This document shows positions 5,974 through 48,954 of a stretch of 52,836 bases of DNA, piece by piece. The notes below the pieces were generated by a model that worked only from the letters and a program-made list of their open reading frames with translations, ran no database searches and was not told the origin of the DNA. Positions within the stretch are counted from its first letter, which is position 1; each line of letters opens with the position of its first letter. A program made the translations under genes and the position numbers. The stretch covers positions 1-52,836 of the forward strand of contig JACPHB010000014.1 in NCBI GenBank assembly GCA_016188835.1, read 5' to 3'. The DNA comes from Parcubacteria group bacterium (GTDB lineage Bacteria > Patescibacteriota > Minisyncoccia > UBA10092).

Positions 5974-6001
5974 TACTCCCATTATCCGAATTACGGGAGT
6001 G
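5974..6001. repeat. Palindrome downstream of the TrpR-like gene
   Basis: tactcccattatccgaattacgggagtg; inverted copy of 6459-6486. Confidence 0.9.
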
Positions 6002-6016
6002 CTATATATATAGATT

Positions 6017-6448
6017 TTATTTGGATTTTTTATCTAAAAATAAATTAAATAACAAGAAATGTAAAGGATATTTCTTTCTCAACCATTCAAATGAAAGGGG
6101 TCGGGGTAGTATTTTATTAACACCTCTCTTATCAAGCACTTTATTAAATTCTCGAATGGCTTTCTCATAACCTCCAAAACCCCTTATCAACCAACTATGG
6201 ACTTTGGCGATATTATCGTATCCGGCTTTAATACGAACTCTGATCTCCTCATAAGTCATACCTTCTAGAAGATATTTAGCAATCATAATTCGGCGCGACA
6301 ACATAATTGCTTCACTTTCACTAAGTAAGTCCTTGAAGAAATTTTTAACCTCATCCCTTGATTTAAACGCTGCGATGCTGGTCCATAACAAGTCCAAATA
6401 TTTCATTCTGTCCAAACTGTTTATTTTCCTTGGATTAATTTTAGCCAT
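6017..6448 (-). CDS. TrpR-like (YerC/YecD) DNA-binding protein
   Basis: FFKDLLSESEAIMLSRRIMIAKYLLEGMTYEEI...IAKV...GFGGY. Confidence 0.85.
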   Translation of the reverse strand: MAKINPRKINSLDRMKYLDLLWTSIAAFKSRDEVKNFFKDLLSESEAIMLSRRIMIAKYLLEGMTYEEIRVRIKAGYDNIAKVHSWLIRGFGGYEKAIREFNKVLDKRGVNKILPRPLSFEWLRKKYPLHFLLFNLFLDKKSK

Positions 6449-6458
6449 AAATTTATTT

Positions 6459-6486
6459 TACTCCCATAATTCGGATAATGGGAGTA
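6459..6486. promoter_or_regulatory. Operator-like palindrome upstream of the TrpR-like gene
   Basis: tactcccataattcggataatgggagta, 10 nt upstream of the ATG. Confidence 0.75.
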
Positions 6487-6557
6487 TATTACATAATAAA
6501 ATAAATAACAAATTATTTGGAATATAAAAGTTGCAAATTTAAATTCCCCGTGCCAAA

Positions 6558-7210
6558 TTAAAAATTTTGGGATAGGAAATCTAAGATTCTTTGTTTTAAT
6601 TCCGGTTCAGAATTAAACATCCGCGTGCCATGGCCGGCATCTTCGTATTTAATAAATTCTTTTTTTGCCGCTACCGAAATATCAAAAAGACGTTCGCATG
6701 ATTCAAACGAATAATTATCGTCTTTACTTGCAATGAGTAAAAGGTTTTTCCTAAAATTGCGAGAAGCAATTTCGGTTTTTATACCTTTGTAATTAAGTCC
6801 GGGAGACATAGCAACAACAATTTTTGGTTGGGATTTTGCACCATAAAGAAGGGCGAGATTAGCACCGATTGAACCGCCAATTATGGCCAGCTCGGTTTCG
6901 GGAATTCTGTTTGTAAGCCACTGCGCCGCCGCTTCAACATCGTAAATCATTTTGTCATAGTCAGCTGGTGTAAATTCTTGCCACGAGCCTATTTCCCCCG
7001 GCCAGGCCTCTGATTCGCCATGGCCCCTCTCGTCTATATTTAAAACATTATAATTATTGGTAAACAAAAAATTCGCGAACTCTTCAAAATTAGCGCGGCT
7101 TCCCGGCAATATATGCAATAACAAAACTGATTTCTTATTTTTTGCATCATAGAAGTCGCCAACAACTTTTATGCCGTCTTTAGTTTGAAAATTAATATTT
7201 TTTTTTCCAT
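6558..7210 (-). CDS. Alpha/beta hydrolase; natural ATG (7210) is put out of frame by an A9 run
   Basis: DERGHGES, GGSIG nucleophile elbow, GHGT. The frame continues upstream as INFQTKDGIKVVGDFY, while ATG-G-A9 is one base short of that frame. Confidence 0.8.
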
Positions 7211-7216
7211 TTACTA

Positions 7217-7987
7217 TTAATTTTTAAAGAAAAGAGAAATTATAAAAAATATAATACCTGTTAAAATTATGGCCGGACCGGGAGGAAAATTAAATGCGGT
7301 TGAAATTAAAATACCTGTAAATGTCATGATCAAACCAAAAATAACGCTAAAAATTAAAAATGATTTTAAACTCCAGGCAAAGTTGCGAGCGGAAACAGCC
7401 GGCAAAATTGTAAGGGCACCCATTAAAACTGATCCGATAAGCTTAATACCTAGGGCTATGCTTAACGCAAAAAGCAAGAGAAATGCGAGATAAGAAAAAT
7501 CAGGGCGAAATCCGATCGATTTCGCCAAATCCGGCGCCGCGATACTAAGCGTTAGGCGGCGCGACAACAGCATTGTTAAAGAAAATATCATTGATGAGGC
7601 CATGATAATAATTACCGCGTCAAATTTTTTAATAGCAAATAAGTTGCCGAATAAACTTTCAAAAAGTTCTTCATTGGGAACTAATATAACGCCTAAAGCA
7701 AGAGTAGCGGTAAAAAAAGTGCCGATGATAGCTTCCGGCGGCAAAGCCGTTTTTTTCTCAATTAACCAAGTGCCGAAAGCCGCCACTAAAAGAAAAGTTG
7801 CTGCTCCATAAACAGGATCAATACTTAACATCAGCGCCAATCCAATACCAGGAAGTGCCACATGTGATAACACATCACCCACCAAAGCCATTCTTTTAAC
7901 CACAATAAAAGCGCCGAGCAAACTTGCGGCTAAAGCCGTAAACAAACCGGAAATTAGTATTAATAAGAATTGGTTATCAATTGCCAT
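7217..7987 (-). CDS. znuB: Zn/Mn ABC transporter permease (ZnuB-like)
   Basis: GAFIVVKRMALVGDVLSHVALPGI, LFGN, PPGPAII. Confidence 0.9.
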   Translation of the reverse strand: MAIDNQFLLILISGLFTALAASLLGAFIVVKRMALVGDVLSHVALPGIGLALMLSIDPVYGAATFLLVAAFGTWLIEKKTALPPEAIIGTFFTATLALGVILVPNEELFESLFGNLFAIKKFDAVIIIMASSMIFSLTMLLSRRLTLSIAAPDLAKSIGFRPDFSYLAFLLLFALSIALGIKLIGSVLMGALTILPAVSARNFAWSLKSFLIFSVIFGLIMTFTGILISTAFNFPPGPAIILTGIIFFIISLFFKN

Positions 7988-8008
7988 TTTTTAATATTTA
8001 TTAAAAAA

Positions 8009-8725
8009 TTAGTGAAGATGATGATAGAAAGCGTTTTCGCCGTAAAGCCGCTTAATTTGCTCATTAGTTAAAGCACGCTCCGGTTCGCCATAGCAAAGCC
8101 GCTCTTTATTAAGGCACAAAACATTATTGGCGTAGCGATATACGACATTAAGATCGTGTGAAATCATTATTATCGTCATTCCTCTTTCATCTTGAAGTTT
8201 GTGAAGCATATTATAAACGCTTTCTTCTCCGGCAATATCAATACCGGCCGTTGGTTCGTCAAAAAGCAAAACTTGCGGATGCCCTAAAATTGCCCAAGAA
8301 ATTAAAACGCGTTGCAGCTCACCTCGTGATAAATTTATTAATTGCCGATCTAAAATATTGGCATCAATATCAACCGACTTTAATTCATGAACTACCGAAT
8401 TTAATATTTGTTTATCTTTAAAAAACAAGTTTTTTGATTTCAGCAAAAAAAATTCCTTGACGGTCAGTGGTAATTCTGCTTTTTCCATAAGTTTTTGTGG
8501 AACATAGCCAATTTTAACATTTGTCCGCCATTTCACATTGCCGTCATAAGGAATGAAATCCATCAAAGCTCGAAATAAAACGGTTTTCCCGGCACCATTA
8601 GGGCCTATTATCGCCAAAAAATCGCTTTCATTCACAGAAAAAGAAATGTCTTTCAAAATTTCCTGATTGCCAAAACTTACCGACAAATCTCGAACTTCTA
8701 AAATATTTTTTTGGTTATCTGTCAT
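8009..8725 (-). CDS. znuC: Zn/Mn ABC transporter ATPase (ZnuC-like)
   Basis: GPNGAGKT, IGYVPQ, LSRGELQR, FDEPT, SHDL, C-terminal His cluster. Confidence 0.9.
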   Translation of the reverse strand: MTDNQKNILEVRDLSVSFGNQEILKDISFSVNESDFLAIIGPNGAGKTVLFRALMDFIPYDGNVKWRTNVKIGYVPQKLMEKAELPLTVKEFFLLKSKNLFFKDKQILNSVVHELKSVDIDANILDRQLINLSRGELQRVLISWAILGHPQVLLFDEPTAGIDIAGEESVYNMLHKLQDERGMTIIMISHDLNVVYRYANNVLCLNKERLCYGEPERALTNEQIKRLYGENAFYHHLH

Positions 8726-9516
8726 ATATTTTGAGAATAAAACAACGCTGCCGCGCCTATCGCTCCGGCATTTTCACCCAGCTTTCCTTTTAAAATTTTA
8801 ACATTTTTCTCTGCTTGAAGAAAAACTATAAATTTTCCAGTGGTTTTAGCCGCGCCGCCGCCGATTATTATTGCTTCCGGATCCAAAATATTAATAATAT
8901 TAGCAATGCCGATCCCCAAATTTTTCTCAAATTTTTGAGCCGCTATTTTTGAAAATTTTGATTTTCTCATTTGTTTTACTGTTGCCTCTTCTAAATATTT
9001 TCCATTATTTATTATCATATGCCCGATTTCTCCGGCAGAACCGTTCGCGCCATAAACCATTTTACCATCGATAATAATACCTCCGCCAACACCGGTTCCC
9101 AGTGTCATGCCAACAATATTCTTATAACCCTTCCCAGCGCCGAATAAATACTCGCCACGGGTAAAACACCGCGCGTCATTGTCGATTCTAATTTCATAAT
9201 TGAATTTTTTCTTTAGCCAATTTTTAATGTTTAGTCCGTCCAAAAAATTAATATTTGACCAACTTAAAATAATCCCCTTTTCTAAATCCAAAGCGCCGCC
9301 GATGCCGCAGCCGATGCCTCTAATGCTTTTCTTCCCGCCGGCCTTTTCAATTAATTCCTCAATTACTTTTTCAGACTTGCCAAAAAAATCTTTTTTATTT
9401 TTTGGCATCGGAATTTTAATTTTATAAAAAACCCGAGCATCTTTAATAAGCGCGGCAATAATTTTAGACCCACCAACATCAATCCCAATAATATATTTTT
9501 TATTAATAAATGTCAT
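8722..9516 (-). CDS. ROK family sugar kinase (shortened)
   Basis: IGIDVGGS, DNDARC, TLGTGVGGG, AGEIGH, AGAIGAA. Confidence 0.9.
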   Translation of the reverse strand: MTFINKKYIIGIDVGGSKIIAALIKDARVFYKIKIPMPKNKKDFFGKSEKVIEELIEKAGGKKSIRGIGCGIGGALDLEKGIILSWSNINFLDGLNIKNWLKKKFNYEIRIDNDARCFTRGEYLFGAGKGYKNIVGMTLGTGVGGGIIIDGKMVYGANGSAGEIGHMIINNGKYLEEATVKQMRKSKFSKIAAQKFEKNLGIGIANIINILDPEAIIIGGGAAKTTGKFIVFLQAEKNVKILKGKLGENAGAIGAAALFYSQNI

Positions 9517-10607
9517 TGAATAACCACTTCATTTAACACCGATCTTTTTAAACTTATTATGTCTTCCGGATTAACTTTAGTTGTTAAATTAGAAATATAG
9601 CCATCAAAAAAATCACTGATTAAATTATTGCGAACGCCTCCTTTGATATCTTGATGCCGGCCCAACCAATTAAGAGAGCGCATTGCCAATAACAAATCGT
9701 TTTTTACTTGTTTATCATCAAGCCATTTATCGGTCTTAATTTTTTTAACAGAATCAAGATCAACAATACGGCAATCTAAAGTAATATTATGGTCGGTTAA
9801 ATATGTATGTACAAAGCCGGCATTGTGAATAATAGCCACTTGTTTGCCCAATGTTTGAGCGAACCACTGAACATAGTCCTCATTTGAAAAATTATGAGGA
9901 TCCCTGCCAAGTTCTTGAGCAACCATATGTTTAGCGTCTTCCAATAAAACATGGTCTCCTGCATCAGCAATCCTGGCTTTCGTTCCAAATGCTCGCACCT
10001 CAATAACAGGTTCGGTAGTATATTTTATGTATCCCATCTTTTTGGCTTTTGAAACCGATATTTTTTCTCCGTTTTCAACTACAATTTCGTCAAGCCGGAT
10101 GATTGCTAACGCCCGATGAGTGCGCAATCCTTGCTTTATAAAAAATTCCGACATATCGCGATCGGTTTCCGCAAACCCCCAATCTAAAAATCCCCAAGGA
10201 GTTTTGCCTTTGGCAACTTTTCGCGCTGAACCTGCTTCAAGGGATTCAACCATTAAAAAAAGATCATCACTATTTGGAGGACTTATCGATCCCATTCCTT
10301 TTATGTCAACATCACGGTATAAATTTCCTTCTTTATCTCTAAAAACAACTCTTCCTAAAAGAGCGCTACGAAAATGATTATCCATTACTTTAACGCGAAA
10401 TATGGGTTCTCCTTCATTTGCCTCCGGAGTCAGAAAAACCCCTATCTTAGACGGCTTATCCTCTTCAAACCTGAAAGGCATCTCAACATCATTGTTTACC
10501 CAAACCACCTCGTTTTTAACTTCCACCGCCGGTAATTTTTCTAAGTCAAAATGACCAGTCTCACCTAAACCAATAATCAGGCCTGGTTTTTTTTCAAACG
10601 TATTCAT
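9513..10607 (-). CDS. Hypothetical protein with SelO/YdiU-like kinase-fold motifs
   Basis: DIKGMG, RTHRALAII, GFVHTYLTDHNI, IVDLD. Confidence 0.55.
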   Translation of the reverse strand: MNTFEKKPGLIIGLGETGHFDLEKLPAVEVKNEVVWVNNDVEMPFRFEEDKPSKIGVFLTPEANEGEPIFRVKVMDNHFRSALLGRVVFRDKEGNLYRDVDIKGMGSISPPNSDDLFLMVESLEAGSARKVAKGKTPWGFLDWGFAETDRDMSEFFIKQGLRTHRALAIIRLDEIVVENGEKISVSKAKKMGYIKYTTEPVIEVRAFGTKARIADAGDHVLLEDAKHMVAQELGRDPHNFSNEDYVQWFAQTLGKQVAIIHNAGFVHTYLTDHNITLDCRIVDLDSVKKIKTDKWLDDKQVKNDLLLAMRSLNWLGRHQDIKGGVRNNLISDFFDGYISNLTTKVNPEDIISLKRSVLNEVVIQ

Positions 10608-10713
10608 GTTTTCTAATCAATAGTTATTTATCAATAATCACTTTAAATATATATAGCTATAATAACATATAATAAATTATTACACCAAATATTATACCAA
10701 ATAATTTAGTAAC

Positions 10714-10747
10714 GCAGCATTTACTTGCGATAGCAAGGAAATGCTTC
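10714..10747. repeat. Palindrome downstream of the PaaX-like gene
   Basis: gcagcatttacttgc-gata-gcaaggaaatgcttc. Confidence 0.85.
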
Positions 10748-10754
10748 TAACAAA

Positions 10755-11324
10755 TTAAATCTTAAAAATTTCCTTTAAATGCAATTCGTTATCAATTTTT
10801 TCGGCCACAATTTGTCTAACATAAGAACGAATATTATAAAATTCAATTAAAAATTCTATTTCATTGCAACATTTATATGGCAAAACAAAAACACTTTTTT
10901 GTAATTTATAAAAACCGAGCCGTTTTAAATGCTGACGCATTGCTTCTCTGATTTTTTTGTATTTTTCCGGAATGTCAAAAATAATAATTCTCCACTTCCG
11001 ATCCCAAATTTTGGGAATTTTAATAATCATTTCATCAATTTCATATTCCAGCGCTTTCTTTTTTCCATTTTCGGTTAAAATCATTTTTATCGTATTGCCA
11101 GCACCATCTCTCATATCAACTAACTTGCTTTCATATAAACTTCTAATAGCTCTTTTCAATGCCTGTCTATTGATTTTATTCCACTCGCGCTTCATCTGTT
11201 TTAAAATCCAAAGTTGTTGGCGCAAATTATAAGTAAAACCAAATGATAAACTCCCAAAAAGTAAAAGTAGAACTTTTCTTTGAAAAGTTCCTAATCGTTT
11301 ATTTGTTTTTACATTATTTTTCAT
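10755..11324 (-). CDS. PaaX-like regulator: wHTH plus Cas2-like ferredoxin-fold domain
   Basis: LTENGK; WDRKWRIIIFDIPE...LKRLGFYKLQKSVFV. Confidence 0.85.
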   Translation of the reverse strand: MKNNVKTNKRLGTFQRKVLLLLFGSLSFGFTYNLRQQLWILKQMKREWNKINRQALKRAIRSLYESKLVDMRDGAGNTIKMILTENGKKKALEYEIDEMIIKIPKIWDRKWRIIIFDIPEKYKKIREAMRQHLKRLGFYKLQKSVFVLPYKCCNEIEFLIEFYNIRSYVRQIVAEKIDNELHLKEIFKI

Positions 11325-11367
11325 TGTTTATTATTTTTATAATGCAAAATTTAACATTTACATAATA

Positions 11368-11401
11368 GCACCATTTTCCAGCGATAGCAAGTAAATGCTG
11401 C
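11368..11401. repeat. Palindrome upstream of the PaaX-like gene
   Basis: gcaccattttccagc-gata-gcaagtaaatgctgc; 28/34 identical to 10714-10747. Confidence 0.85.
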
Positions 11402-11461
11402 CAATAACTAAAATAACTAATATAAACTATAAAAACGATCCGTACTGGATGGTTTTAATTT

Positions 11462-13333
11462 TTATTGCCATAATTTTTTGGCTTCTTCCCAAAATTCCGG
11501 ATGTCCGTTTACTTTCATATAATACCACCATTCGGCGCCCCATAAATAGTACTCGTCAAAACCGGTTGCTTTGGCATATTGAATAGTGTCTTTAAAGAAG
11601 TCAATGTCAAAAGATTTTAATTGCTCTTGAAGGCCGGTCTCATAAATTTGTTTTGCCATCCACGGTTCAGCCGATAGTTCAATAACAATAAATTTTTTAT
11701 TATGATCGTTGATAAAAAATCTTGTTATTTTTTCTTTCAAAATAAAAAACTCCGGCGGTAAATGGTAATTAATCCGGCCAAAATATTTATTATACACTCG
11801 CCGGTACATTGTTGTGCCAAAAATATCTCCTTCTTTTGCCGCTTTCGGCCACCAGCCAAATTCGCCACCATCGGTAATTAAAATTGGACGACTCTTATCA
11901 AGAGATTTTACAAGCGATATTTCGCTTTCAATAAAATTTTTTTCTCTTTCAGGGCATTCGCCGAACCGTAAAAAAGGCTCGTTTTCCACTTGCCACATTT
12001 TTATCACCTTATTATTTTTATATCGTTTGATAATTTCCGCCAAATATAATTTTAGTTCATTTTCTCTTTCTTTGTTAGAAATCATTTCAGCCCAATTGGG
12101 CATATAACACTCGGGCCATCTTGGCACTTTCATACCTATGACTAAAATTATTTTTACATTTCTTTTTTGAGCTTCGTTGATTTGCCAATCCAGATCGGAA
12201 AAATCAAAAGTGTTTTTTTCTTTTTCTATTTCATCCCAATAAGCAATTAAACGAATATTATCAACTTCTAAATTATCCAATATAGCTATTAAATTTTCTT
12301 TCGGGTTAAGACCGAGCTCTTTGCTGAATTTACTAGAAAATGTAACGCCCCAAATAATAGGCCGATTATGATCAGCGGTCGGAAATTGGCCGAATACTAT
12401 AAGAAACAAACCAATGCCAACTAAAATCGCGGCAATAACTTTTTGCCACAAAACAATACCTTTTAATTCCTCTTTGAGAATATCGGGCCGCCAAAAAGAA
12501 ATTGCTACAGCGAGTATTAAAACGAAAAATTGCCTTAACCCTTCAAACGCGTTAACCAAAGTGGCGCTAACAAGCGAAATGGCGAATTTAACCAGTCCGG
12601 AACCCAAAATGCTGAATGTTTTATCGGAAAAAAATAAAAAAGCGCTTCTTTTTTCGGCGTAAGTATTTATTGCCAAAATTTTTTGTTTTTGGCCAGGCCA
12701 TAAAAATATTATTAGAGATGCCGCAAGATAACCGATGCTAATCCAAAAAAATCCACTGAAAAATCCTTGCAATCTAAAAGTTTCTCCGGCTAAAACCAAA
12801 CCGATGGCAATCCCCAAAGCGCTGCCGGTTGTTAAAAAAGCGCTTCTTAAATCAAGTCGAAAATTATCGCGTCTTTTCAAAAAAACTAAAACACCGCCGG
12901 AAACCAAAAAAATAAAAGCTAAAAATTGAATTGTGTTTAATCTTTCTCCAAGAAAAAAATATTTTAGCATAAAAGTGAAAATCGGCATACTGCCGACAAA
13001 TAATGTCATTACCCGCGAGGCCTCGCTGCGATACAGAGCCAAATAAAATGGCCACAATCCAAAAATCAAAAAAATACCGGAAATAACGCCAATAATAGCT
13101 TCTTCGAAGCCAATTTTTAAAAAATTAAACCAAATATTGAAAATTAAGGCGGTAAAAATTACAGCTGAACCGCCTAAGCCGCTGTAAAAAGCATAAACCG
13201 TTGGATTAATAGGTTTGCTGACCGAACCGCTTAAAGCAATTTTAGAAATAATGCTTGATATGGCCGCGAATAAATTTCCTAAAATTACTATCAAAATCCA
13301 ATTTTTAAAGAAAAAATCTATAAATTCTTTCAT
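11462..13333 (-). CDS. Fusion of EamA/DMT-like membrane domain and clan-A glycoside hydrolase domain
   Basis: About 10 TM segments in the first ~315 aa, then WGVTFS, LDWQINEA, GMKVPRWPEC, WQVENEP, ELSAEPW, LWGAEWWY. Confidence 0.75.
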   Translation of the reverse strand: MKEFIDFFFKNWILIVILGNLFAAISSIISKIALSGSVSKPINPTVYAFYSGLGGSAVIFTALIFNIWFNFLKIGFEEAIIGVISGIFLIFGLWPFYLALYRSEASRVMTLFVGSMPIFTFMLKYFFLGERLNTIQFLAFIFLVSGGVLVFLKRRDNFRLDLRSAFLTTGSALGIAIGLVLAGETFRLQGFFSGFFWISIGYLAASLIIFLWPGQKQKILAINTYAEKRSAFLFFSDKTFSILGSGLVKFAISLVSATLVNAFEGLRQFFVLILAVAISFWRPDILKEELKGIVLWQKVIAAILVGIGLFLIVFGQFPTADHNRPIIWGVTFSSKFSKELGLNPKENLIAILDNLEVDNIRLIAYWDEIEKEKNTFDFSDLDWQINEAQKRNVKIILVIGMKVPRWPECYMPNWAEMISNKERENELKLYLAEIIKRYKNNKVIKMWQVENEPFLRFGECPEREKNFIESEISLVKSLDKSRPILITDGGEFGWWPKAAKEGDIFGTTMYRRVYNKYFGRINYHLPPEFFILKEKITRFFINDHNKKFIVIELSAEPWMAKQIYETGLQEQLKSFDIDFFKDTIQYAKATGFDEYYLWGAEWWYYMKVNGHPEFWEEAKKLWQ

Positions 13334-13336
13334 AAA

Positions 13337-14581
13337 TTAATCGTTAATTTCAACAGCGTTAGATCCGGCAATTTCCGCATAAACCATGCTCGAGAGCCGC
13401 GGTTTTCTTTCAAGCGTTTTATAATCAATCTCAACCAAACCGAATCTTGGCCAAAAACCTTTATCCCATTCAAAATTGTCCAAAAGCGACCAATAGAAAT
13501 AACCGCGAACATCAACACCTTCTTGGATAGCTTTAACAGTCCATCGTAAATGTTCTTCAATAAATTTTACGCGATTTTCGTCTCGGGTATCAGCAATGCC
13601 ATTTTCTGTAATATAAATAGGCTTATTATATTTTTTTAAATCTTTCAAAACATGATAAATACCCTCCGGAAATATTTCCCAGCCCATATCGGACTTCCAA
13701 TGATTAGGATTTTTAACATCGGCAATTCCGAATCTGCCTCCGCCAAAAACAAATTGTATTACATCAAGATAATAATAATTTAAACCTACAAAATCTTCTT
13801 TGCCTTTTGCGAGTTTTATTTGTCTTGTATCGCGTATATAATTAACAAAAAAAACTGCTAGCCAATCTAAAAAGTTTTTTCTGCGGCGAGGCCTATGGTA
13901 ATGAAGATTGTGAGAAAGCCCGACTATTATAGAATTACCGTAATATTCGTGTAAAAAGTCATAACATTTGCAATGCGCTTCAAATAAATTTTTTAAAACA
14001 CGATTAGATCTCGTCCAGCTTTTTACATTGGGAGAAAATTGGCCAAACAAATATGACGCCCCCGCATATACAGATGGTTCGTTAATGGTAATCCATGATT
14101 TTATATCCAATGATTGCGCAATTTTCCCCACATATCTTAGAAAAAAATCAATAGTTTTTGGATTTTCCCAGCCACCTATATCACGAATCCATAAGGGGTT
14201 GGTCCAATGCCAAAGGGTTACAAACGGTTCAATATTCCGCGCACGAAGCGCTTGGATGACCTTTCGGTAGTGTTCTATTTCATCTTGATTGAATTTCCCT
14301 TCTTCCGGCTCAATTCGCGACCATTCAATGGAAAAACGATGAGCATTATGGCCCAGTGATTTCGAAATATTAAAATCTTCTTCGTAGCGATTATAATGGT
14401 CGCAGGCTTTCCCTGAAATATAATTTTCAGAAGGATATTTTCCACCGCTTTCTTTTGAAAGACGCTCTGCGTTTTCTTTTTCCCACTCCGACCAATCATT
14501 ATGATTATTGCCTTCAACCTGATGCGCCGAAGTAGCCGCGCCCCATAAAAATCCTTCCGGAAATTTAAATATTTTGCTCAT
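13337..14581 (-). CDS. Glycoside hydrolase family 1 (beta-glucosidase)
   Basis: FLWGAATSAHQVEG, RFSIEWSRIEP, TINEP, YITENG, WSLLDNFEW. Confidence 0.96.
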   Translation of the reverse strand: MSKIFKFPEGFLWGAATSAHQVEGNNHNDWSEWEKENAERLSKESGGKYPSENYISGKACDHYNRYEEDFNISKSLGHNAHRFSIEWSRIEPEEGKFNQDEIEHYRKVIQALRARNIEPFVTLWHWTNPLWIRDIGGWENPKTIDFFLRYVGKIAQSLDIKSWITINEPSVYAGASYLFGQFSPNVKSWTRSNRVLKNLFEAHCKCYDFLHEYYGNSIIVGLSHNLHYHRPRRRKNFLDWLAVFFVNYIRDTRQIKLAKGKEDFVGLNYYYLDVIQFVFGGGRFGIADVKNPNHWKSDMGWEIFPEGIYHVLKDLKKYNKPIYITENGIADTRDENRVKFIEEHLRWTVKAIQEGVDVRGYFYWSLLDNFEWDKGFWPRFGLVEIDYKTLERKPRLSSMVYAEIAGSNAVEIND

Positions 14582-14587
14582 TTCAAA

Positions 14588-16703: not shown

Positions 16704-16745
16704 TGAAAAATAAATTTAAAAAATTTTGATTTTTTAATTTTAAAT

Positions 16746-18113: not shown

Positions 18114-18195
18114 TGTGATTTTTTCTAAAATCTATTTTCATTTTACAACAAAAAAATAAATTAGCAAAATTTTTTTGGAAATTTTATGTTGATAA

Positions 18196-19419: not shown

Positions 19420-19441
19420 TTGAATTATTATTTGTTATTAT
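19413..19441 (+). promoter_or_regulatory. Sigma70 promoter of the small ORF
   Basis: TTGACA-17-TATTAT with a TG extension. Confidence 0.65.
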
Positions 19442-19480
19442 TTCTAATAATAAACCATGCTCTATAGGGAGGTGATCTGA

Positions 19481-19651
19481 ATGGAACCATACCGCGAACG
19501 TGTGGCGGACGTCATTCGAGATGAACTTAACAATCAAGGCCTTTTAATTAGTGAATTACCAAGAAGGGTACAAGAAGCTTTAAATAATATCGAGATTCGA
19601 CTCGCAACCGACCTTGAGGAACTATATAAGGCTAAGAATCGACCCAGCTAA
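19481..19651 (+). CDS. 56-aa hypothetical protein (not in the ORF track)
   Basis: GGAGGTG RBS, promoter and terminator; MEPYRERVADVIRDELNNQGLLISELPRRVQEALNNIEIRLATDLEELYKAKNRPS. Confidence 0.75.
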   Translation: MEPYRERVADVIRDELNNQGLLISELPRRVQEALNNIEIRLATDLEELYKAKNRPS

Positions 19652-19660
19652 TCTGGGTAG

Positions 19661-22246: not shown

Positions 22247-22259
22247 TCTTATTCACTTT

Positions 22260-33036: not shown

Positions 33037-33140
33037 ATATTTAAAGAAAATAAAATTTTAAAATTGTAGGCGGGGGCGAGCCGTTCGCCGAAGGCGAATG
33101 GGGCTAAGCAATTTTAAAATTTTTATTTTTTTCAAATATA
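33037..33140. repeat. Dispersed structured element copy B
   Basis: Core differs from copy A (2937-3000) by 2 nt; diverged AT-rich arms stay complementary. Confidence 0.9.
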
Positions 33141-35159: not shown

Positions 35160-35213
35160 TTTTATTTAAATTAATTAATTTTAATCAAAACCGCCGGTAG
35201 ATATTTTTCCTAA

Positions 35214-35279
35214 ATATCCACAGCTGTTAATTTAATTATAGCCGACCAAATTTCTTTGTCTATAGTAATCTGTGGATAA
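35214..35279 (-). promoter_or_regulatory. Promoter bracketed by inverted DnaA boxes
   Basis: ATATCCACA (35214) and TGTGGATAA (35271) around TAGACA-16-TATAAT on the minus strand. Confidence 0.55.
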
Positions 35280-35287
35280 GTCCGGCG

Positions 35288-36112: not shown

Positions 36113-36116
36113 GAAT

Positions 36117-38405: not shown

Positions 38406-38440
38406 TTTACATTTTGATATTTACATTTTACACTTAAAGT

Positions 38441-39802: not shown

Positions 39803-39809
39803 ATTCATC

Positions 39810-42386: not shown

Positions 42387-42486
42387 TTTATGATCTTATA
42401 ATACGCCTAAATTTATCATTTGACAATTAAACTTTAGTTTAATTATAATGTAACTATTGTTTTGATTTTATCAAAAACAGGAGGTT

Positions 42487-42873
42487 TTGATGGAAATCTT
42501 CAAATTGACACAAGAAAACATTCATCCAAAAATTGTTGAGTTCTTTGAAAAAATAAAAAAGTGGCACGAAGAAAATGGTTATCGATATGGTGCTCAAACT
42601 ATTGATGATGTTTTAGAACAATGTATTGTAGTAGATACCGGAACTTTTATAATTCTTATACAAGATGGCGGAGAAAAATATCACGAGAATTGCGGAGTGG
42701 TTGTTTTTAATAAAAATGGCATCATAATTGATTCACGAATTTATTTCAATCCAATTGAAGGACAAAAAGTGCCCAAAAAAGCGTTTATCGGAATTCCCAT
42801 TATTGATGGCTCAAAAGTAATGAAATTTAAACCACACAGAAAGAAAGAAAAACAATTCCAACCTCCAATTTAA
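42487..42873 (+). CDS. Hypothetical protein (ORFan cassette)
   Basis: TTGACA/TATAAT promoter at 42420-42449, GGAGG RBS, terminator near 42887-42920. Confidence 0.7.
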   Translation: MMEIFKLTQENIHPKIVEFFEKIKKWHEENGYRYGAQTIDDVLEQCIVVDTGTFIILIQDGGEKYHENCGVVVFNKNGIIIDSRIYFNPIEGQKVPKKAFIGIPIIDGSKVMKFKPHRKKEKQFQPPI

Positions 42874-43048
42874 CTAAATTTTTTAAACCGCATGGATTTA
42901 CCCAGCGGTTTTTTTATTTTTCAACTTTCGGAAATCAGCAACGATCGTTGGAATATTCCGAAAAATACTTTTTTACTAAAAAGATTTTTATAAGGAATAT
43001 TAAAAATAAAAAAGAGCCAGTTTTTAATAACTGGCAAACTCATTTGGT

Positions 43049-43753
43049 TTAGCAAAACTCCGCAAGATCTGTGTAGGTGGTTTCTTTAACCACCCATCCG
43101 TCTTGCCGGAGTAATTTAACAATACCCTTGACGTGTTTTTCTCCGTAATGGATGAATATATTGCGTCCGTTGGAATTCGCTTTAACTTTGGCTACGGCCA
43201 CTTCATTGCGATAATCCAATATAATTGGTATGGCTTTTTTAAATAGAAACCAAGCAACAAATTTTTTTAAGGACCACTTATCGAAACTGTTCATTAGCGC
43301 ATTAAAGCCACCCCTATTAACAAACTCATCTTTAAATTTCTTCTCGAGTTCTTTCTTTGGCACAATGGTAAAGAGCCAAAGGAGAAAACTGCACCGGAAG
43401 CCGTTCTTATCGAGTTTCCTTGTGAACTCGGCAAAAGTAATATCAGCATTAATTGCATCTTTTGGATATGTAATCTTCTCTTTCTGAAACGAGATACCAA
43501 TAGCCGCTGCAAAAACCGGACATAAGTCAAAGAGAAATAAGAAGAACTTCTTTATCTTACTCTCATTGGCAGTGGCTGCCCTTTTGGGAGGGTCTTTTTT
43601 TACTCCCTCAAAGAAAATCTGATAATTGTTCTTTACTGCCCAATCAATGCCGCTCTGAAGCACTTCGTAGAGTTTATCCGGACCTATATGTATCATCCCT
43701 TGCAAGACAGCTTCTTGATTCCCTCGCCTAAGAACAGTTCGTGATAGACGCAA
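43049..43753 (-). CDS. Hypothetical protein, possibly TraB/Tiki-like fold
   Basis: GMIHIG, FFEGV, RNE, YGEKH pattern; GGAGG RBS before TTG. Confidence 0.55.
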   Translation of the reverse strand: MRLSRTVLRRGNQEAVLQGMIHIGPDKLYEVLQSGIDWAVKNNYQIFFEGVKKDPPKRAATANESKIKKFFLFLFDLCPVFAAAIGISFQKEKITYPKDAINADITFAEFTRKLDKNGFRCSFLLWLFTIVPKKELEKKFKDEFVNRGGFNALMNSFDKWSLKKFVAWFLFKKAIPIILDYRNEVAVAKVKANSNGRNIFIHYGEKHVKGIVKLLRQDGWVVKETTYTDLAEFC

Positions 43754-43893
43754 TTTAGGCCTCCTTGCCTTATGTTATGTTAAGAACTTCAAAATAAACA
43801 CAACTATGGCAATTATAACACATATTTAGTATTTAGTAAATAGCAACTTTTTAATACTAAATTATTATAAATAAAAAACCCCAATAATGGGGG

Positions 43894-44802
43894 TTAGGAA
43901 ATAATTTCTTTTATCAGTTTGACGCCGAGATCAACAGTGGGGTCGTAGCGCAGAATGCGCTTTCGCCACCAATTAAGCGGGCTTATTTCCACAATATCCG
44001 CGGCTCTTAAGTTTGGCAATCCAATTTTTAACTGTTTTACCAAACTAACAAGTTCCGTATCGGTGAAACCACCGGGACTGGGACAGCCGGTTCCCGGCGC
44101 GTAAGCGCCGGAAGCAACATCAATATCAATTGATAAATAAGTTGCCTCCAATTTCCGAAATTTTTCCAAAATGCGAATAACTGAAAAATCATTCATTGTA
44201 AATCCTCCGGGATCCTTGATGGCGCCCATGCGGTAATATTTGATGTTGAATTTATCCAAAAATTCTTTTTCAGATTTTTCCATCTGGCGTAATCCAAGAA
44301 TTAAAACGTTTTCAGGCAAAACGTACTCGTCTTCAATAAGCCAATGAAGCCAGTCGGAATGAATCGGCCAGTCGGCCTTAGAACAGCAATCCGGATGGGC
44401 GTCTAATACAACGAGTCCCGTTTGCTGCCGTCCAAATGTTTGCGATGTTCCAATATATGTTGAAGCGGTGATACTGTGAGAACCGCCCAAAAACAGAATG
44501 TTTGTGTCAAATCCCCAACCTTTCAAATATGATAAGATAGATTTATGCATCTTTCCCCAGCCGTCGGCACTATTTTGGTGTCCGAATCCAAAATCTATCT
44601 CATACCACGGGATATCATCCCAAGACGAAATACCGTTATCGGCCATAAAAACTCTCTGGCGCATAAATTCATTTTTAAGCGCTTGAGGCGCTTTTCTGGC
44701 ATTTTTGGGCTTTGCTATATTTAAAGAACAATATCCCCCGCCATATGGCACTTGGATCACGATCCAGTCCTGTTTAGCTATTTCTGCCTCCGTATTTAAC
44801 AA
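43894..44802 (-). CDS. Arginase/agmatinase (ureohydrolase) family protein
   Basis: GGSHS, LDAHPD, SIDIDV, APGTG-P-PGG, DIVEISP. Confidence 0.9.
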   Translation of the reverse strand: MLNTEAEIAKQDWIVIQVPYGGGYCSLNIAKPKNARKAPQALKNEFMRQRVFMADNGISSWDDIPWYEIDFGFGHQNSADGWGKMHKSILSYLKGWGFDTNILFLGGSHSITASTYIGTSQTFGRQQTGLVVLDAHPDCCSKADWPIHSDWLHWLIEDEYVLPENVLILGLRQMEKSEKEFLDKFNIKYYRMGAIKDPGGFTMNDFSVIRILEKFRKLEATYLSIDIDVASGAYAPGTGCPSPGGFTDTELVSLVKQLKIGLPNLRAADIVEISPLNWWRKRILRYDPTVDLGVKLIKEIIS

Positions 44803-44860
44803 TAATATCGGCGATTAGCAGATATTATAACAGGCAGTGAGGGAAAAAGCAAAATTTATT

Positions 44861-45217
44861 TTATTCGCCTTTTAAAAGTTTTTTTAGCGTTCGGGCGCCT
44901 TTTTTATAAAGCGATAAATTTTTTTCTTTGTTTATTTTTATTTCCTTTTGCAACTCACTTCTTATCGCGTCAATCGCTACCCGCAAATCCCACTTTTCGG
45001 CAACCGCTCTTATTAATCGTCCGGGAATTTTTAAATTGACTTCGGCTCTGAAAATATCGCCTTTTTGGTGATGGTTCGTTATTTTACCAAGTTCAACGTC
45101 GGCAGATATGCTTTCGTCGCCGGGCAAAAATTTATCCAAAGAATTCAGCTTTTGTTCAAGATAATTTTTAATACTCGGCGTTAAGCTAAAATTTTTTGTT
45201 TTTAAATTAATTTTCAT
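44861..45217 (-). CDS. raiA: Ribosome hibernation factor HPF/RaiA
   Basis: LTPSIKNYLEQKL, FRAEVNL..PG, DLRVAID. Confidence 0.9.
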   Translation of the reverse strand: MKINLKTKNFSLTPSIKNYLEQKLNSLDKFLPGDESISADVELGKITNHHQKGDIFRAEVNLKIPGRLIRAVAEKWDLRVAIDAIRSELQKEIKINKEKNLSLYKKGARTLKKLLKGE

Positions 45218-45220
45218 ATT

Positions 45221-45292
45221 GGTTCGACCCGTTCGATAAAACTCAGGGTCGCTCTGAACGGAGTTGAATGAGCGACTTAACTCACCACAAGT
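45221..45292. repeat. Nested cluster of three TGAGC-N-TCGAA REP-like units
   Basis: ggttcgac[ccgttcgataaaactcagggtc][gctctgaacggagttgaatgagcgac]ttaactcaccacaag. Confidence 0.75.
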
Positions 45293-45293
45293 A

Positions 45294-45388
45294 ATTCGGC
45301 TCTTAAAGGGACTCGGGAGTGGCTAACCCCAATTCAAATGTTTTTAAGTGGGTTGTCAGTAAACACCGAGCCCCTTTAAAAGTCGAAT
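45294..45388 (-). ncRNA. Candidate 95-nt rod-shaped RNA in the hpf leader
   Basis: Long imperfect inverted repeat just downstream of a TATAAT (45400-45405). Confidence 0.45.
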
Positions 45389-45422
45389 CTGCCAATTTGA
45401 TTATATAACACAATAACAATAT

Positions 45423-45500
45423 AAAAAAGCTCAAAGCCCCGTAAAACGGGGCTTTGCGCCAACATTGAATGGTCATCGCCTTTCGGCGAAATAACCCACT
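45423..45500 (-). ncRNA. Candidate ~75-nt sRNA/leader with GAAA-tetraloop hairpin and terminator
   Basis: TGGACA-17-TATACT promoter, tcgcc-GAAA-ggcga hairpin, caaagccccg/cggggctttg terminator and U-tract. Confidence 0.5.
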
Positions 45501-45545
45501 TATCCACAGTATAGCATATCTAAAAAATTTTGTCCACCTCCTATA

Positions 45546-46022
45546 CTAAAGCGAAATTATTTTCCAAAGGCCTTTTTGATTTTTTATAAGTTCCAGCGCC
45601 GCCGCGGTTTGGCCGGTCTCATCAATAATTTCAAAATAATAATGGGTTTCGTTCGAGGACTTGCCTAGCTTAATATTTTTTAAATCTTTTATTAAATCAC
45701 TTAATAAATTGGTAGTGTTAAGCCTTTCTAAATCTTCCGACACGACTTCCCTATTTTCCGGAATAAAATATTTTGCCGCCAAAGTTAAATCATTTTTTTC
45801 TAAGGCAAAAATTAATAATTTTAAAGTTTCTTGCGGCGTTTTACCGCCGAAATCAGAAAATCCGTCAGTAATATTTTTATTTATTGGGGCTTTAGCGGGA
45901 AGGTTGTTTTTATTGTTAATACTAATATTGGGACCGCTTAAAAACCACAATCCTAAAAATCCGATTGATAAAATGGATATTAAAACAATAACGCTTCTTA
46001 ATATACCTTTGGAGGAAGCCAT
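45546..46022 (-). CDS. Membrane-anchored hypothetical protein
   Basis: TM; GGKTPQETL..F..AL...D...AAKYF; WKI. Confidence 0.7.
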   Translation of the reverse strand: MASSKGILRSVIVLISILSIGFLGLWFLSGPNISINNKNNLPAKAPINKNITDGFSDFGGKTPQETLKLLIFALEKNDLTLAAKYFIPENREVVSEDLERLNTTNLLSDLIKDLKNIKLGKSSNETHYYFEIIDETGQTAAALELIKNQKGLWKIISL

Positions 46023-46489
46023 GAGCTTATTAAAATAAAAATTGTAATTAAAGCAATTCCGGCTACAATATCTTTTATTATAACTTTTTTGATTTTTATA
46101 CTAAAGGCGAATAAATTATCATTTGCCGGCTTTCCGAAATATTCTCTGTAAATATCCAGCGTTACCGCAAAAATCACCGAGAGTATTCCTCCTAAAATAT
46201 AAAAAGGAAACGGCATAAAAGAAATGCTCCAAATCAACTCGCTAAAACCTAAAACAAAAATAACAGAAATTACAAAAATTTGCTTTTTACTTTTTAATCC
46301 TATCAATTCTCCGGCTCGCCTGAAAGTTAAAAAATTTTGCCAAAACGTTAAAAAGATCAAAAAACTTAGAATCATTAGTCCGGAAAAAAAACCGATGGCT
46401 TGATATAAAATTAGATACAAAATAAAACTGGATGATAAAAATATAAAGACCGAAGAAATAATAAAAAAGGTTTGGGAGGAAATTTTCAT
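45998..46489 (-). CDS. Hypothetical membrane protein
   Basis: About 5 hydrophobic segments, in an operon. Confidence 0.7.
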   Translation of the reverse strand: MKISSQTFFIISSVFIFLSSSFILYLILYQAIGFFSGLMILSFLIFLTFWQNFLTFRRAGELIGLKSKKQIFVISVIFVLGFSELIWSISFMPFPFYILGGILSVIFAVTLDIYREYFGKPANDNLFAFSIKIKKVIIKDIVAGIALITIFILISSWLPPKVY

Positions 46490-46498
46490 TTGTAATTT

Positions 46499-47749
46499 TT
46501 AAATTCTTAAATTTTTAAAATTAAGAAGCGCTTTATTTATTATTTCCGCCGCTTTTTTTATTTCTTTTTCAGTTGTATCTTTTCCTATGGTAATGCGAAT
46601 GCTTTCTTTTGCTTGTTTTTCGGTTAGCCCCAGAGCGTTTAAAACATAAGATGCTTTGGAGGCACGAGCCGAACAAGCCGAACCGGCAGAAACCGCGAGT
46701 CCATTTTGGTCTAAAGCTATAAGAAGCGTTTCATTGCTTATATTGGGAAATCTTATATTTAAGTTATTCGGTAATCGGTTGCTTGTCCTGAGCGAAGTCG
46801 AAGGATCAAGCGAACCGTTTAATTTAATATCCTTATTATATTTAATTATATAATCCAGCAATTGGTTTCGCAAATGAAGGATTTTTTTTAAACGCGTTTC
46901 CCTATTTTTAAAAACAAGCCCAACTGCTTTAGCCAGGCCCACTATGCCCGCGACATTTTCCGTACCGGACCTTAGCCCAAATTCCTGGCCGCCGCCCTTA
47001 ATAATAGGTCCTATAAAACCTATAGGTCCTATCTTTCTTACATAAAGCCCCCCAACACCCTTTGGCCCGTAAATTTTATGACCGGAAAATATTAATAAAT
47101 CAACCTTGAGCCAATCCGGACGGCATTCCAGAAATTGAAATGCCTGAACCGCATCGGTGTGAAAATAAATTCTATTTAACCCTTGTTCTTTTCTTTTAGT
47201 ATTTATTTTTTCCAAAAGTTTTCCAATTTCTTTTACCGACTGGATTGTTCCGATTTCGTTATTCGCGTATATAATACTTACTAAAACAGTATTATTTTTA
47301 ATGCTTTTTTCTAAATCTGAAACACTAATAAAACCATCTTTATTAACTTTAAGATATGTAATTTCGTGTCCGGCTCTTTCAAGCTCTTTTAATGGCTCGA
47401 GAACCGATTCATGTTCAATGTTGGTAGAAATAATATGTAATTTATTTATCCCACTTACAGACGATCGTCTGTAAGTCGTACAATTCTGAATTAAACCATT
47501 AATAGCCATATTATTCGCTTCCGTGGCCGAACCGGTAAAAATGATTTCGGAAAAATCGCAGTTTAAAAGATTGGCGATTTTTTCTCTCGCTTGATCTATC
47601 GCCGCAATTGCTTCTTGCCCAAAAGAATGCACCGAAGAAGCATTGCCGAATTTATCGCTAAAATACGGCATCATCGCATTCAAAACTTCTTTATCAACCG
47701 GCGTCGTCGCGGCATAATCAAGATAGATTTTCTTGGTTTGATTAGACAT
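46499..47749 (-). CDS. iscS: Cysteine desulfurase (IscS/NifS); likely start 47749
   Basis: YLDYAATTP, HTDAVQ, SGHKIYGPKG, RSGTEN, SAGSAC. Confidence 0.95.
   Translation of the reverse strand: MSNQTKKIYLDYAATTPVDKEVLNAMMPYFSDKFGNASSVHSFGQEAIAAIDQAREKIANLLNCDFSEIIFTGSATEANNMAINGLIQNCTTYRRSSVSGINKLHIISTNIEHESVLEPLKELERAGHEITYLKVNKDGFISVSDLEKSIKNNTVLVSIIYANNEIGTIQSVKEIGKLLEKINTKRKEQGLNRIYFHTDAVQAFQFLECRPDWLKVDLLIFSGHKIYGPKGVGGLYVRKIGPIGFIGPIIKGGGQEFGLRSGTENVAGIVGLAKAVGLVFKNRETRLKKILHLRNQLLDYIIKYNKDIKLNGSLDPSTSLRTSNRLPNNLNIRFPNISNETLLIALDQNGLAVSAGSACSARASKASYVLNALGLTEKQAKESIRITIGKDTTEKEIKKAAEIINKALLNFKNLRI
46781..46811. repeat. TGAGC-N-TCGAA REP-like element in iscS
   Basis: gcttgtcc-tgagcgaagtcgaa-ggatcaagc; encodes LDPSTSLRTS. 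Confidence 0.82.
47453..47476. repeat. Perfect 24-bp palindrome in iscS
   Basis: acttacagacga|tcgtctgtaagt; encodes TYRRSSVS. Confidence 0.9.
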
Positions 47750-47830
47750 TATAATTAATATTAAAACATAAAAATGAATTTTTTTCAATAAAAAACCGCA
47801 GACTTTAATTAATTCTACGGTTAATTGTTT

Positions 47831-48454
47831 TTAATCAGGATATTTATAATTAAACGCATAAAGTAAATTCCAATTATATTCCATTAAATGGTATGCTGCC
47901 TCTATATCTCTGGATTCTAAAACCAACTTTATACTTTCTGTCAGAATAATGGTCTTTTGGCAATCCAATTCGCAATGGATATGCAATGTGTAAAATAGAG
48001 CCTCATTAAGACTCCCTTTTTTAACGGCTTCTTTTAGTTTGCGATAGAATAGAACTGCAGGTCCTTTTTCTTGTCCATTTTTCAAAAATTCTTGGCAACT
48101 TTTTTTAAAAGCATCGATACAGCATTTTGGATAACCCAAAAACTCGCCAGTTTCAATTTCTCTAGACCATAATTGATTTAGTAGGATCGGACTTTTTGAA
48201 ACATAATAATCTCCTCGCTGTTCTTTATAATACAATCCCAATTTTACCAGACAATATTCTAAATATCTTTTTTGGATTGAAAGGTACTGTGATCCTCGTG
48301 TTCGTTCAAATTTCCAAAGTTCAACATTGGCACCCAATCTAACATCTTCGAGAACTGGAACTAAATCTGCTCGTATGCCTAAGTTAAGTTTGTACCATTC
48401 AATAAAACTATATATATTTTTACCTTTTGTCCGTGACTCTTTTTTAATGAACAT
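47831..48454 (-). CDS. Hypothetical protein (DUF483-like motif)
   Basis: GEFLGYPKCCIDAF and H-x-x-C-x3-C. Confidence 0.55.
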   Translation of the reverse strand: MFIKKESRTKGKNIYSFIEWYKLNLGIRADLVPVLEDVRLGANVELWKFERTRGSQYLSIQKRYLEYCLVKLGLYYKEQRGDYYVSKSPILLNQLWSREIETGEFLGYPKCCIDAFKKSCQEFLKNGQEKGPAVLFYRKLKEAVKKGSLNEALFYTLHIHCELDCQKTIILTESIKLVLESRDIEAAYHLMEYNWNLLYAFNYKYPD

Positions 48455-48569
48455 TCATTCCCCATATTTTTCTTAATAATCCGGTGATGTAGATAGTCTC
48501 TTTTATATATGCTTTTTATTTTATTAAGTCAAGGTAACGCGCCGGTTTCTTTCTTGCAAAGTTCGTATG

Positions 48570-48591
48570 CCCTCATTCGCGCGAATAGGGG
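48570..48591. repeat. Palindrome downstream of arsR
   Basis: ccctc-attcgcgcgaat-agggg. Confidence 0.8.
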
Positions 48592-48649
48592 ATAAAAAAG
48601 ATATAAAAAGCGAAAATAAAAAAGTTAAATTCAATAATTAAAAATCGAA

Positions 48650-48910
48650 TCAAAGAATAGAAATGATATGCTTTGCCGGTAATTTTTGCTCGGCAGACAA
48701 GTGATAAAACATCTGGGAACTTCGCTGTTCTCTTTCAATAATATCAACTGCGGATAAAACGCCGAGGTGTTTTGACGTGGCCTTGAAAGATAAATTAATT
48801 TCATCGGCAATTTCCGTTACTGGCGCTTCTTTATTTTCTTTGAGATATTTCAAAATCGCCAATCGGCGACGATTAGCCAGCGCTTTTAAAATTTTTTCCA
48901 ACTTATACAT
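48650..48910 (-). CDS. ArsR/SmtB-family wHTH regulator
   Basis: LKALANRRRLAIL, VTEIA, TSKHL. Confidence 0.92.
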   Translation of the reverse strand: MYKLEKILKALANRRRLAILKYLKENKEAPVTEIADEINLSFKATSKHLGVLSAVDIIEREQRSSQMFYHLSAEQKLPAKHIISIL

Positions 48911-48931
48911 ATTTTATGTATTTGTTAGTAC

Positions 48932-48954
48932 GACCCTATTCGCGCGAATAAGAC
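48932..48954. promoter_or_regulatory. Operator-like palindrome upstream of arsR
   Basis: ccctattcgcgcgaataagac; 20/20 match at 21874-21893. Confidence 0.75.

Follow-up and report, generated by a model that had tools for sequence, protein, structure and literature searches.

Small DNA-binding genes bracketed by their own palindromes in a Parcubacteria genome

Why would a small gene encoding a DNA-binding protein carry its own palindrome on both sides? The question is raised by a contig of a Parcubacteria group bacterium (JACPHB010000014.1; 52,836 nucleotides [nt], the whole of which is called here the window). An earlier note, made from the letters of this DNA, had described three solitary genes in it, each with a private palindrome upstream and another downstream: a TrpR/YerC-like gene, a gene for a short protein of the PaaX/Cas2 fold, here called mini-PaaX, and an ArsR gene. 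All the coordinates that it gave were confirmed. We find that this bracket layout is real and far above chance, that it is conserved and general across the lineage, and that it is common to three unrelated protein families. The three modules, together with a copy of the TrpR-type and of the ArsR-type site in distant open reading frames (ORFs), are as follows.

6017-6448, minus strand: YerC/YecD (TrpR-related) DNA-binding gene, 143 amino acids (aa); Pfam Trp_repressor, 1.1e-10
6459-6486: upstream TrpR-type palindrome, 28 nt; its outer edge meets a promoter-like -10 box, TATACT, at 6488-6483
5974-6001: downstream TrpR-type palindrome, 28 nt; 15 nt past the stop codon
659-686: third TrpR-type copy, within a FemAB-family ORF (femX; 3-1031, minus strand); 2 mismatches, reads SRNSDYGS
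10755-11324, minus strand: mini-PaaX gene (winged helix plus Cas2-like domain), 189 aa; Pfam PaaX_M, 2.8e-22
11368-11401: upstream mini-PaaX palindrome, about 34 nt; its centre holds the -35 box of TTGCTA-17-TATTAT with TG
10714-10747: downstream mini-PaaX palindrome, about 34 nt; 7 nt past the stop codon
48650-48910, minus strand: ArsR/SmtB-type winged-helix gene, 86 aa; Pfam HTH_20 and HTH_5, NCBIfam NF033788
48928-48959: upstream ArsR palindrome, 32 nt; core ATTCGCGCGAAT at 48938-48949
48566-48595: downstream ArsR palindrome, 30 nt; core ATTCGCGCGAAT at 48575-48586, about 52 nt past the stop codon
21874-21893: exact 20-nt copy (20/20) of the ArsR upstream site in uvrA, coding for VLFARIG

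The window is the entire contig C1 of the genome under study, G000 (662,466 bases in 24 contigs, 97% complete, 37-42% G+C). The sequencing runs that contain its DNA are groundwater metagenomes, with no RNA run among the 18 listed, and the public homologues of one of its proteins carry Patescibacteria/Parcubacteria lineage names. The comparison with relatives covered 41 searched genomes; G001, G002 and G003 are among the congeners of G000, and G006 belongs to an outgroup genus.

The bracket layout and the proteins inside it

We compared the left and right 150-nt flanks of 732 rough gene calls of G000 and took the maximum score of 300 random flank pairings, 14.5, as the bracket cut-off. Nineteen of the 732 genes scored 14.5 or more, among them the TrpR-like, mini-PaaX and ArsR genes of the window (24.8, 21.1 and 18.5, respectively). 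DNA-binding genes make up 12 of the 19 (9 mini-PaaX, 2 ArsR-type and 1 TrpR-like), and both G000 genes above the cut-off for HTH_5 are bracketed. The other genes that passed are a Y1 transposase related to the repetitive extragenic palindrome (REP)-associated tyrosine transposases, or RAYTs (score 16.2), L3, a SET-domain gene, a UvrD helicase, one ORF without a family above cut-off, and the loci C8:5538 and C17:50036. Within the window, shuffled sequences gave an expectation of 0.00 matches for the TrpR-type palindrome and of 0.01 for the ArsR site, of which four were found over both strands; together with the flank-scan null, these shuffles reject chance as the source of the brackets. Two of the genes outside these DNA-binding families deserve a description. 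The UvrD-type helicase gene (G000:C15:9218-11098, L065) is flanked by a 50-nt inverted repeat and has the top score of the scan, 39.3. The RAYT/IS200-like transposase gene (G000:C7:3999-4694, L062:1500-2195; Pfam Y1_Tnp, 35 bits against a cut-off of 23) is flanked by ATTGAT..CCGAT..ATCAAT palindromes.

That the layout, described in the earlier note as shared by three genes, is systematic is clearest for mini-PaaX, a family of multi-copy, solitary genes. We detected it in 25 of the 41 genomes, with 6-13 paralogues per genome of 0.5-0.8 Mb (9 in G000 and up to 13 in relatives). All nine G000 genes are bracketed by private palindromes of 32-44 bp, upstream and downstream, and the layout is kept in orthologues: 30 of the 36 mini-PaaX ORFs of four congeners score at least 14.5, and the other six comprise a truncated ORF, an N-masked flank (the downstream flank of G001 L163), a contig-end fragment and three shorter matches that contain the core. 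When only the best mini-PaaX locus of each relative genome is taken, 12 of 19 pass the cut-off. The two other families behave likewise. TrpR-like homologues are bracketed at 10 of 12 loci, by palindromes that differ clade by clade, and ArsR homologues at 6 of the 7 loci examined, a count from which 16 weaker ArsR matches were left out. In the window itself, the two TrpR-type flanking copies stand in inverted relative orientation and differ at 2 of 28 positions, and the two mini-PaaX copies have a 34-nt palindrome centred on TATC in common.

Family assignments rest on profile searches and, for mini-PaaX, on a structural model. The TrpR-like protein passes Pfam Trp_repressor (41.8 against a cut-off of 27) and, marginally, NCBIfam TIGR02531 (YerC/YecD; 42.7 bits against 42.2), and the ArsR protein passes NF033788 (67.3 bits against 55). 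The window mini-PaaX passes the gathering threshold of PaaX_M (PF20803; 79 bits against 24), as do two further G000 paralogues (70.9 and 79.6 bits); the remaining six were placed by homology only. It fails the PaaX equivalog TIGR02277 (32.5 bits against 264.55), of which it matches profile positions 55-151 of 279, and at 189 aa it is without the PaaX C-terminal domain, the model comprising only a winged helix and a Cas2-like domain. Its match to the Cas2 family TIGR01573 (29.5 against a cut-off of 24.5) is confined to residues 111-148. The AlphaFold2 model (predicted local distance difference test, 78.8) has an N-terminal winged helix followed by a ferredoxin-like domain, and its top Foldseek match is Escherichia coli PaaX (8a39; E 1.2e-4), followed by Cas2, Rv0674 and VapD; a homodimer prediction (score 0.17, against a mark of 0.42) weighs neither for nor against dimerization. 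FDIPE and LQxS motifs are invariant, and there are at least 805 relatives, under names that vary between Cas2, PaaX and hypothetical. Nothing beyond partial Cas2 matches, Csa3-type winged helices and generic regulators came from PADLOC and PHROGs, and a literature search found no paper on mini-PaaX or on such palindromes in Patescibacteria; the search did not extend to supplements, where REP/RAYT or CPR repeat lists could bear on novelty. As the earlier note had stated, none of the three window genes encodes an HUH transposase, Pfam and NCBIfam showing no Y1_Tnp match.

In three runs, contig depth over 10925-11145 of the window rises to 5-10 times the level on either side, with many loose ends, and the conserved FDIPE part of mini-PaaX occurs in many contexts across the community. 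Directly upstream of the ArsR module, at 48992-49762, lies a solo Cas4-like PD-(D/E)XK nuclease gene, which is the neighbour of that module in G003 as well.

The cores of the sites stay constant together with the protein over large distances while the outer arms vary among paralogues. Mini-PaaX palindromes are centred on CGATCG, CTATAG, CTATCG or CTCGAG and have private arms; orthologues (85-94% identity) occupy syntenic loci and share their arms, and the arms of paralogues (60-77% identity) differ. The upstream site of the window mini-PaaX is identical at 39 of 40 positions between G000 and G003, in surroundings that have diverged. In ArsR modules, the core ATTCG(C/T)G(C/A)GAAT is retained in other families of the class, down to 52% protein identity. 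Constant cores and the 39/40 conservation are what cognate recognition between protein and DNA predicts, and the constancy across families argues for it.

Modules are present or absent as units. The mini-PaaX module is common to G000 and G003. It is missing from G002, where the flanking genes lie 2 nt apart, and from G001, together with the next gene, and a community contig joins 10568 to 11463, skipping it. Gene and flanks are thus missing together in sister genomes, the block absence at the syntenic site that the earlier note had proposed to look for. More generally, the repertoire of mini-PaaX paralogues turns over among congeners. The TrpR module occurs in G000, in G001 and, at the same place, in G006, which implies that its absence elsewhere is a loss; in G002 the neighbours lie 9 nt apart, and G003 retains one related palindrome at the empty site. 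No strand-changing joint at the TrpR repeats was seen in the contigs of four DNA runs, although contigs cannot prove absence. The proposal of protein-plus-cognate-palindrome modules is supported.

Copies away from the modules

The earlier note further supposed that the modules seed their sites around the chromosome. This is only partly borne out. The three window palindromes have just 0-1 extra copies each in G000. Other mini-PaaX families do have loose copies (1-4 extra copies each). Of the extra copies, 15 are intergenic; 7 of these sit between convergent genes, a setting that accounts for 82 of all 647 intergenic regions. The copies in femX and uvrA, which had been taken as seeded sites, do exist as described but are largely pre-existing coding motifs. 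The uvrA genes of four relatives code for VLFARLG, and the DNA of G001 already carries 14 of the 20 nt, so that an L-to-I change in G000 completes the palindrome; insertion is rejected for this copy. It is rejected for femX too, because femX of G003, the only one on which this comparison rests, holds a related, more diverged sequence at the same place and G003 has no TrpR-like orthologue. A further candidate, G001:C4:11809, was discarded as a femX orthologue, being a different ORF that reads YHNPNYGS. TrpR-related palindromes were also found in further ORFs, in two reading frames. Exact non-flanking copies of ATTCGCGCGAAT number 11 in the 6 genomes with a strong ArsR orthologue and 8 in the other 35, a comparison of descriptive value only, since related genomes are not independent samples.

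Two ArsR-type arrangements outside G000 may be recorded here. G035 (L107:984, L108:969) has two extra perfect copies of its 32-nt ArsR-type palindrome a long way from the ArsR gene, both between genes that converge. In G012:C25 (L109:1045-1786), a 113-aa ORF without a family match sits between two identical 40-nt direct repeats that contain ATTCGCGCGAAT.

True in-frame insertions are seen with other families. Two window palindromes, the first of them in frame in an ORF, are orphans:

47444-47485: orphan 42-nt palindrome with a CAGACGATCGTCTG core, in frame in a class-V aminotransferase (IscS-like) ORF
42926-42963: orphan palindrome with a CAACGATCGTTG core, TTTCGGAAATCAGCAACGATCGTTGG..; one of 5 copies in the genome

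The CAGACGATCGTCTG family has 8 copies in G000 and lies in frame in four housekeeping ORFs (IscS-like, FolD-like, Pth and TsaD), where it always reads xRRSSxxG; a fifth ORF copy is at C17:22358. Its exact core occurs 7 times in G000, 3 times in G001, once in G003 and in none of the other 38 genomes. The cognate mini-PaaX is found in G001, bracketed by the same palindrome; no orthologue of it was found in G000, where the best match is 47% identical. For a second G000 orphan, at C17:52383, the matching palindrome belongs to a mini-PaaX that G001, G002 and G003 all have. The supposition that orphan palindromes have cognate genes elsewhere in the genome thus fails for the G000 assembly, in which none was found, but holds in a modified form for these two families, whose mini-PaaX genes reside in sister species.

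Among the host genes, Pth of G000 contains a 29-aa segment that is absent from five of five relatives. The essential gene tsaD of G000 (C13:21589-22749, L136) contains three palindromes of different families, including one of another mini-PaaX family; the TsaD inserts differ in each congener, the loop past HIYSNWL being wholly different among four of them and missing in two other genera. In the IscS-like orthologue of G003, the loop that holds the CAGACGATCGTCTG copy in G000 holds instead an ArsR-type palindrome nearly identical to the upstream site of the G003 ArsR gene.

Other repeats were noted in passing. Two copies of the 42926-42963 family lie about 35 nt from palindrome copies of the C17-family mini-PaaX. 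Inverted repeats at 2922-3015 and 33040-33135 have arms of 26-27 nt placed 42 nt apart and both contain AAATTTTAAAATTG, one of them being 100% complementary. REP-like palindromes with CCGAG loops form two families in G000, one with 5 loose copies and the other with 6.

An autoregulatory cassette and its rivals

The explanation that we favour, holding it with about equal belief and doubt, is an autoregulatory cassette, that is, a DNA-binding protein with two copies of its own site, the sites behaving as REP-like dispersed repeats. Each gene would encode a small sequence-specific DNA-binding protein and carry its palindrome twice, once on or next to the promoter and once shortly past the stop codon, so that gene and sites would form a compact, self-contained unit. 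A dimer would bind each copy; in mini-PaaX, its two winged helices might read the variable arms, the CGATCG/CTATAG centre being the family-constant part. The upstream copy would repress initiation and block read-through from the preceding gene. The downstream copy would be a second anchor, either looping to the first or acting as a roadblock at the end of the gene, as LacI does at O3, and either mechanism would insulate the cassette from adjacent genes, in a genome where most of them run densely in one direction. Loose copies between convergent genes and in frame, varying among sister species, suggest that the sites behave as REP-type repeats.

The position of the copies is consistent with these roles. 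The -35 box of the promoter-like element ahead of the window mini-PaaX is contained in the upstream palindrome, and TATACT abuts that of the TrpR-like gene. By our reading, a TTGnnn box occupies the middle or the right arm of the upstream palindrome in most mini-PaaX modules, which would explain why the upstream palindrome is less perfect. The downstream copies do not resemble the ordinary terminators that the earlier note had named as an outcome against its proposal: in a consensus scan for a G+C stem and a T tract, 0 of 3 were terminator-like.

Several observations weigh against this explanation. The promoter scan found no promoter-like site upstream of the ArsR gene, and promoter-like matches are no commoner than in shuffled sequence. 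The only testable XRE-type regulator is without a bracket (flank score 8.7), as is the ArsR homologue of G020. The distance from the stop codon to the centre of the downstream palindrome has a median of 46 nt but ranges from 19 to 133 nt (n = 29), so that a single non-stop mechanism of the LacI-O3 kind cannot fit all modules. The 8 CAGACGATCGTCTG-family copies of G000, with no cognate gene in the assembly, indicate that sites can outlast the protein. Finally, four of the nine G000 mini-PaaX families have only their two flanking sites; these proteins would regulate themselves alone, behaviour that would be strange in a host regulator and is easier to reconcile with a selfish unit.

This last point leads to the strongest of the alternatives, a REP-RAYT-like replicator with a non-HUH protein, in which the bracketed protein, above all the Cas2-like mini-PaaX, would promote the copying of its palindrome as a vertically inherited selfish or mutualistic unit. 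The self-targeting of four of nine mini-PaaX paralogues and their turnover between congeners speak for it, as do the same layout around the RAYT-like gene of G000, with its related loose palindromes, and the invariant Asp of FDIPE. So do the loose copies in neutral places and in-frame ORF sites with their insertion polymorphism, the occurrence of exact CAGACGATCGTCTG cores in a single genus (7, 3 and 1, against 0 in 38 other genomes), and an ORF copy that has the asymmetric arm of the gene-flanking copy in G001. However, the layout is shared by the TrpR-like protein and by ArsR, which at 86 aa is a bare winged helix, and neither can be an enzyme; nor has the middle domain of PaaX any catalytic activity that we know of. 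The families have few copies (2-8), the genome richest in the CAGACGATCGTCTG family is without its cognate gene, and the synteny of orthologous modules implies that whole modules are not hopping. We consider such a replicator rather unlikely.

A wider formulation, which we hold to be rather unlikely as well, is that the modules are a non-HUH counterpart of REP-RAYT in Paceibacteria-type members of the candidate phyla radiation (CPR). Each of the 6-13 mini-PaaX proteins of a genome would maintain its own palindrome of 36-44 bp, with a shared CGATCG/CTATAG centre, and might also copy it; home copies would bracket the gene, and loose ones would spread to 3' ends between genes and, keeping the frame, into essential genes; the ArsR and TrpR types would have converged on this arrangement or been captured by it.

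It is very unlikely that the palindromes act as RNA, the same stem-loop at both mRNA ends serving stability, termination or translational control with protein binding irrelevant. Such a role could account for downstream copies within the 3' untranslated region, for a TrpR upstream copy that follows the predicted -10 box and whose GGGAG pairs with CUCCC, and for the enrichment of loose copies at the 3' ends of convergent genes. Yet it is the core sequence, beyond mere pairing, that is conserved together with the protein. Moreover, the mini-PaaX upstream copies cover the -35 box and spacer, ahead of the transcript start, and no T tract follows the downstream copies. Arm mismatches are mostly of the transversion type (17 of 26, with 6 G.T against 3 A.C), a weak tally given the small numbers and the many sites mis-placed by the palindrome caller.

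Just as improbable is a mobile gene cassette, with palindromes that are recombination sites or scars (attL/attR-like) served by a recombinase in trans. The absence of modules as clean blocks, with neighbours 2 and 9 nt apart in G002, and the solo palindrome at the empty TrpR site of G003 would fit this scheme, as would the observation, by our reading, that in several modules complementarity is higher between the outer arms of the upstream and downstream copies than between the arms of a single copy. On the other hand, a recombinase in trans would not need a site core that tracks the protein family, and the sites of the three families are unrelated. Orthologous modules are syntenic, the TrpR module stands at the same place in the outgroup genus, so that its absence is a loss, and no recombinase was linked to the modules.

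The least probable alternative, an ordinary regulator-target pair in which the downstream copy is the operator of the next gene's promoter, draws on the 27 of 35 modules with a co-directional next gene, on repeated segments that include a -35-like box (as in G002 L168) and on a solo G000 copy in a promoter-like arrangement upstream of a gene, but it is not general, since 77% co-directional neighbours equal the genome background (about 75% co-directional and 25% convergent). Brackets are still strong in the 8 modules whose neighbour is convergent (e.g., 33.1, 30.4 and 35.7), which assigns the downstream copy to the cassette. The genes downstream of the ArsR locus are unrelated between G000 and G003, and by our reading some 70 nt separate the TrpR downstream copy from the next promoter-like element, which follows it.

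Comparison with known systems

To our knowledge, almost nothing is known about gene regulation and repeat biology in CPR/Patescibacteria. Against this background, the layout offers a rule by which sequence alone matches a protein with its putative cognate DNA site, for dozens of orthogonal pairs, and these many distinct pairs could serve as orthogonal parts for synthetic circuits. Short palindromes that have entered essential genes without breaking the frame, and that vary from one sister species to the next, add to protein variation and mark recent genome dynamics in supposedly streamlined organisms. If the proteins do help to copy the repeats, REP-like elements would have a second route of origin, independent of HUH.

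Palindromic repeats inside conserved housekeeping genes have a parallel in the Rickettsia palindromic elements, which are about 100-150 bp long, inserted in protein-coding genes and reportedly described by Ogata et al. in 2000. Both are in frame and tolerated in loops; those described here are much shorter (36-44 bp), and a cognate flanked gene can be identified for them. The cyanobacterial HIP1 repeat is GCGATCGC. Integron gene cassettes lie in arrays with attC sites and an IntI integrase; the present modules are solitary, with upstream and downstream copies of the same family.

The PaaX family binds palindromic operators. Mini-PaaX resembles E. coli PaaX (8a39) and the PaaX-like Rv0674 (3kfw) in its N-terminal winged helix and Cas2-like middle domain, and differs from E. 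coli PaaX in lacking the C-terminal domain (189 vs 305 aa) and in having 6-13 paralogues per genome.

Repressor genes that lie between, or end at, copies of their own operator are known from LacI/O3 and from lambda CI, which loops between OR and OL, and a downstream copy can there stop polymerase or anchor a loop. A link between LacI/O3 and transfer-messenger RNA (tmRNA) was reportedly treated by Abo et al. in 2000; a tmRNA gene with the tag AKTNLTPAFAFA is present at G000:C17:43892-44332. For LacI at O3, autoregulation by a repressor roadblock placed where its own gene ends has been described (PMC3711431). These are single, well-studied cases, whereas the present layout is a rule over three families and dozens of paralogues, read from sequence and with a stop-to-site distance that spans 19-133 nt.

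The closest likeness in layout is to REP-RAYT, described as a single-copy, vertically inherited gene flanked by its own palindromes, with loose copies often at 3' ends (PMC3116915; PMC3337134; 10.1101/2021.07.10.451892). The present modules are likewise flanked by family-specific palindromes of their own with loose copies elsewhere, but the bracketed genes encode winged-helix or TrpR-type binders instead of HUH Y1 transposases, families have 2-8 copies per genome instead of tens to hundreds, and copies also occur in frame inside ORFs. By analogy, the modules thus appear REP-RAYT-like in layout and LacI/O3- or lambda CI-like in logic, while belonging to neither.

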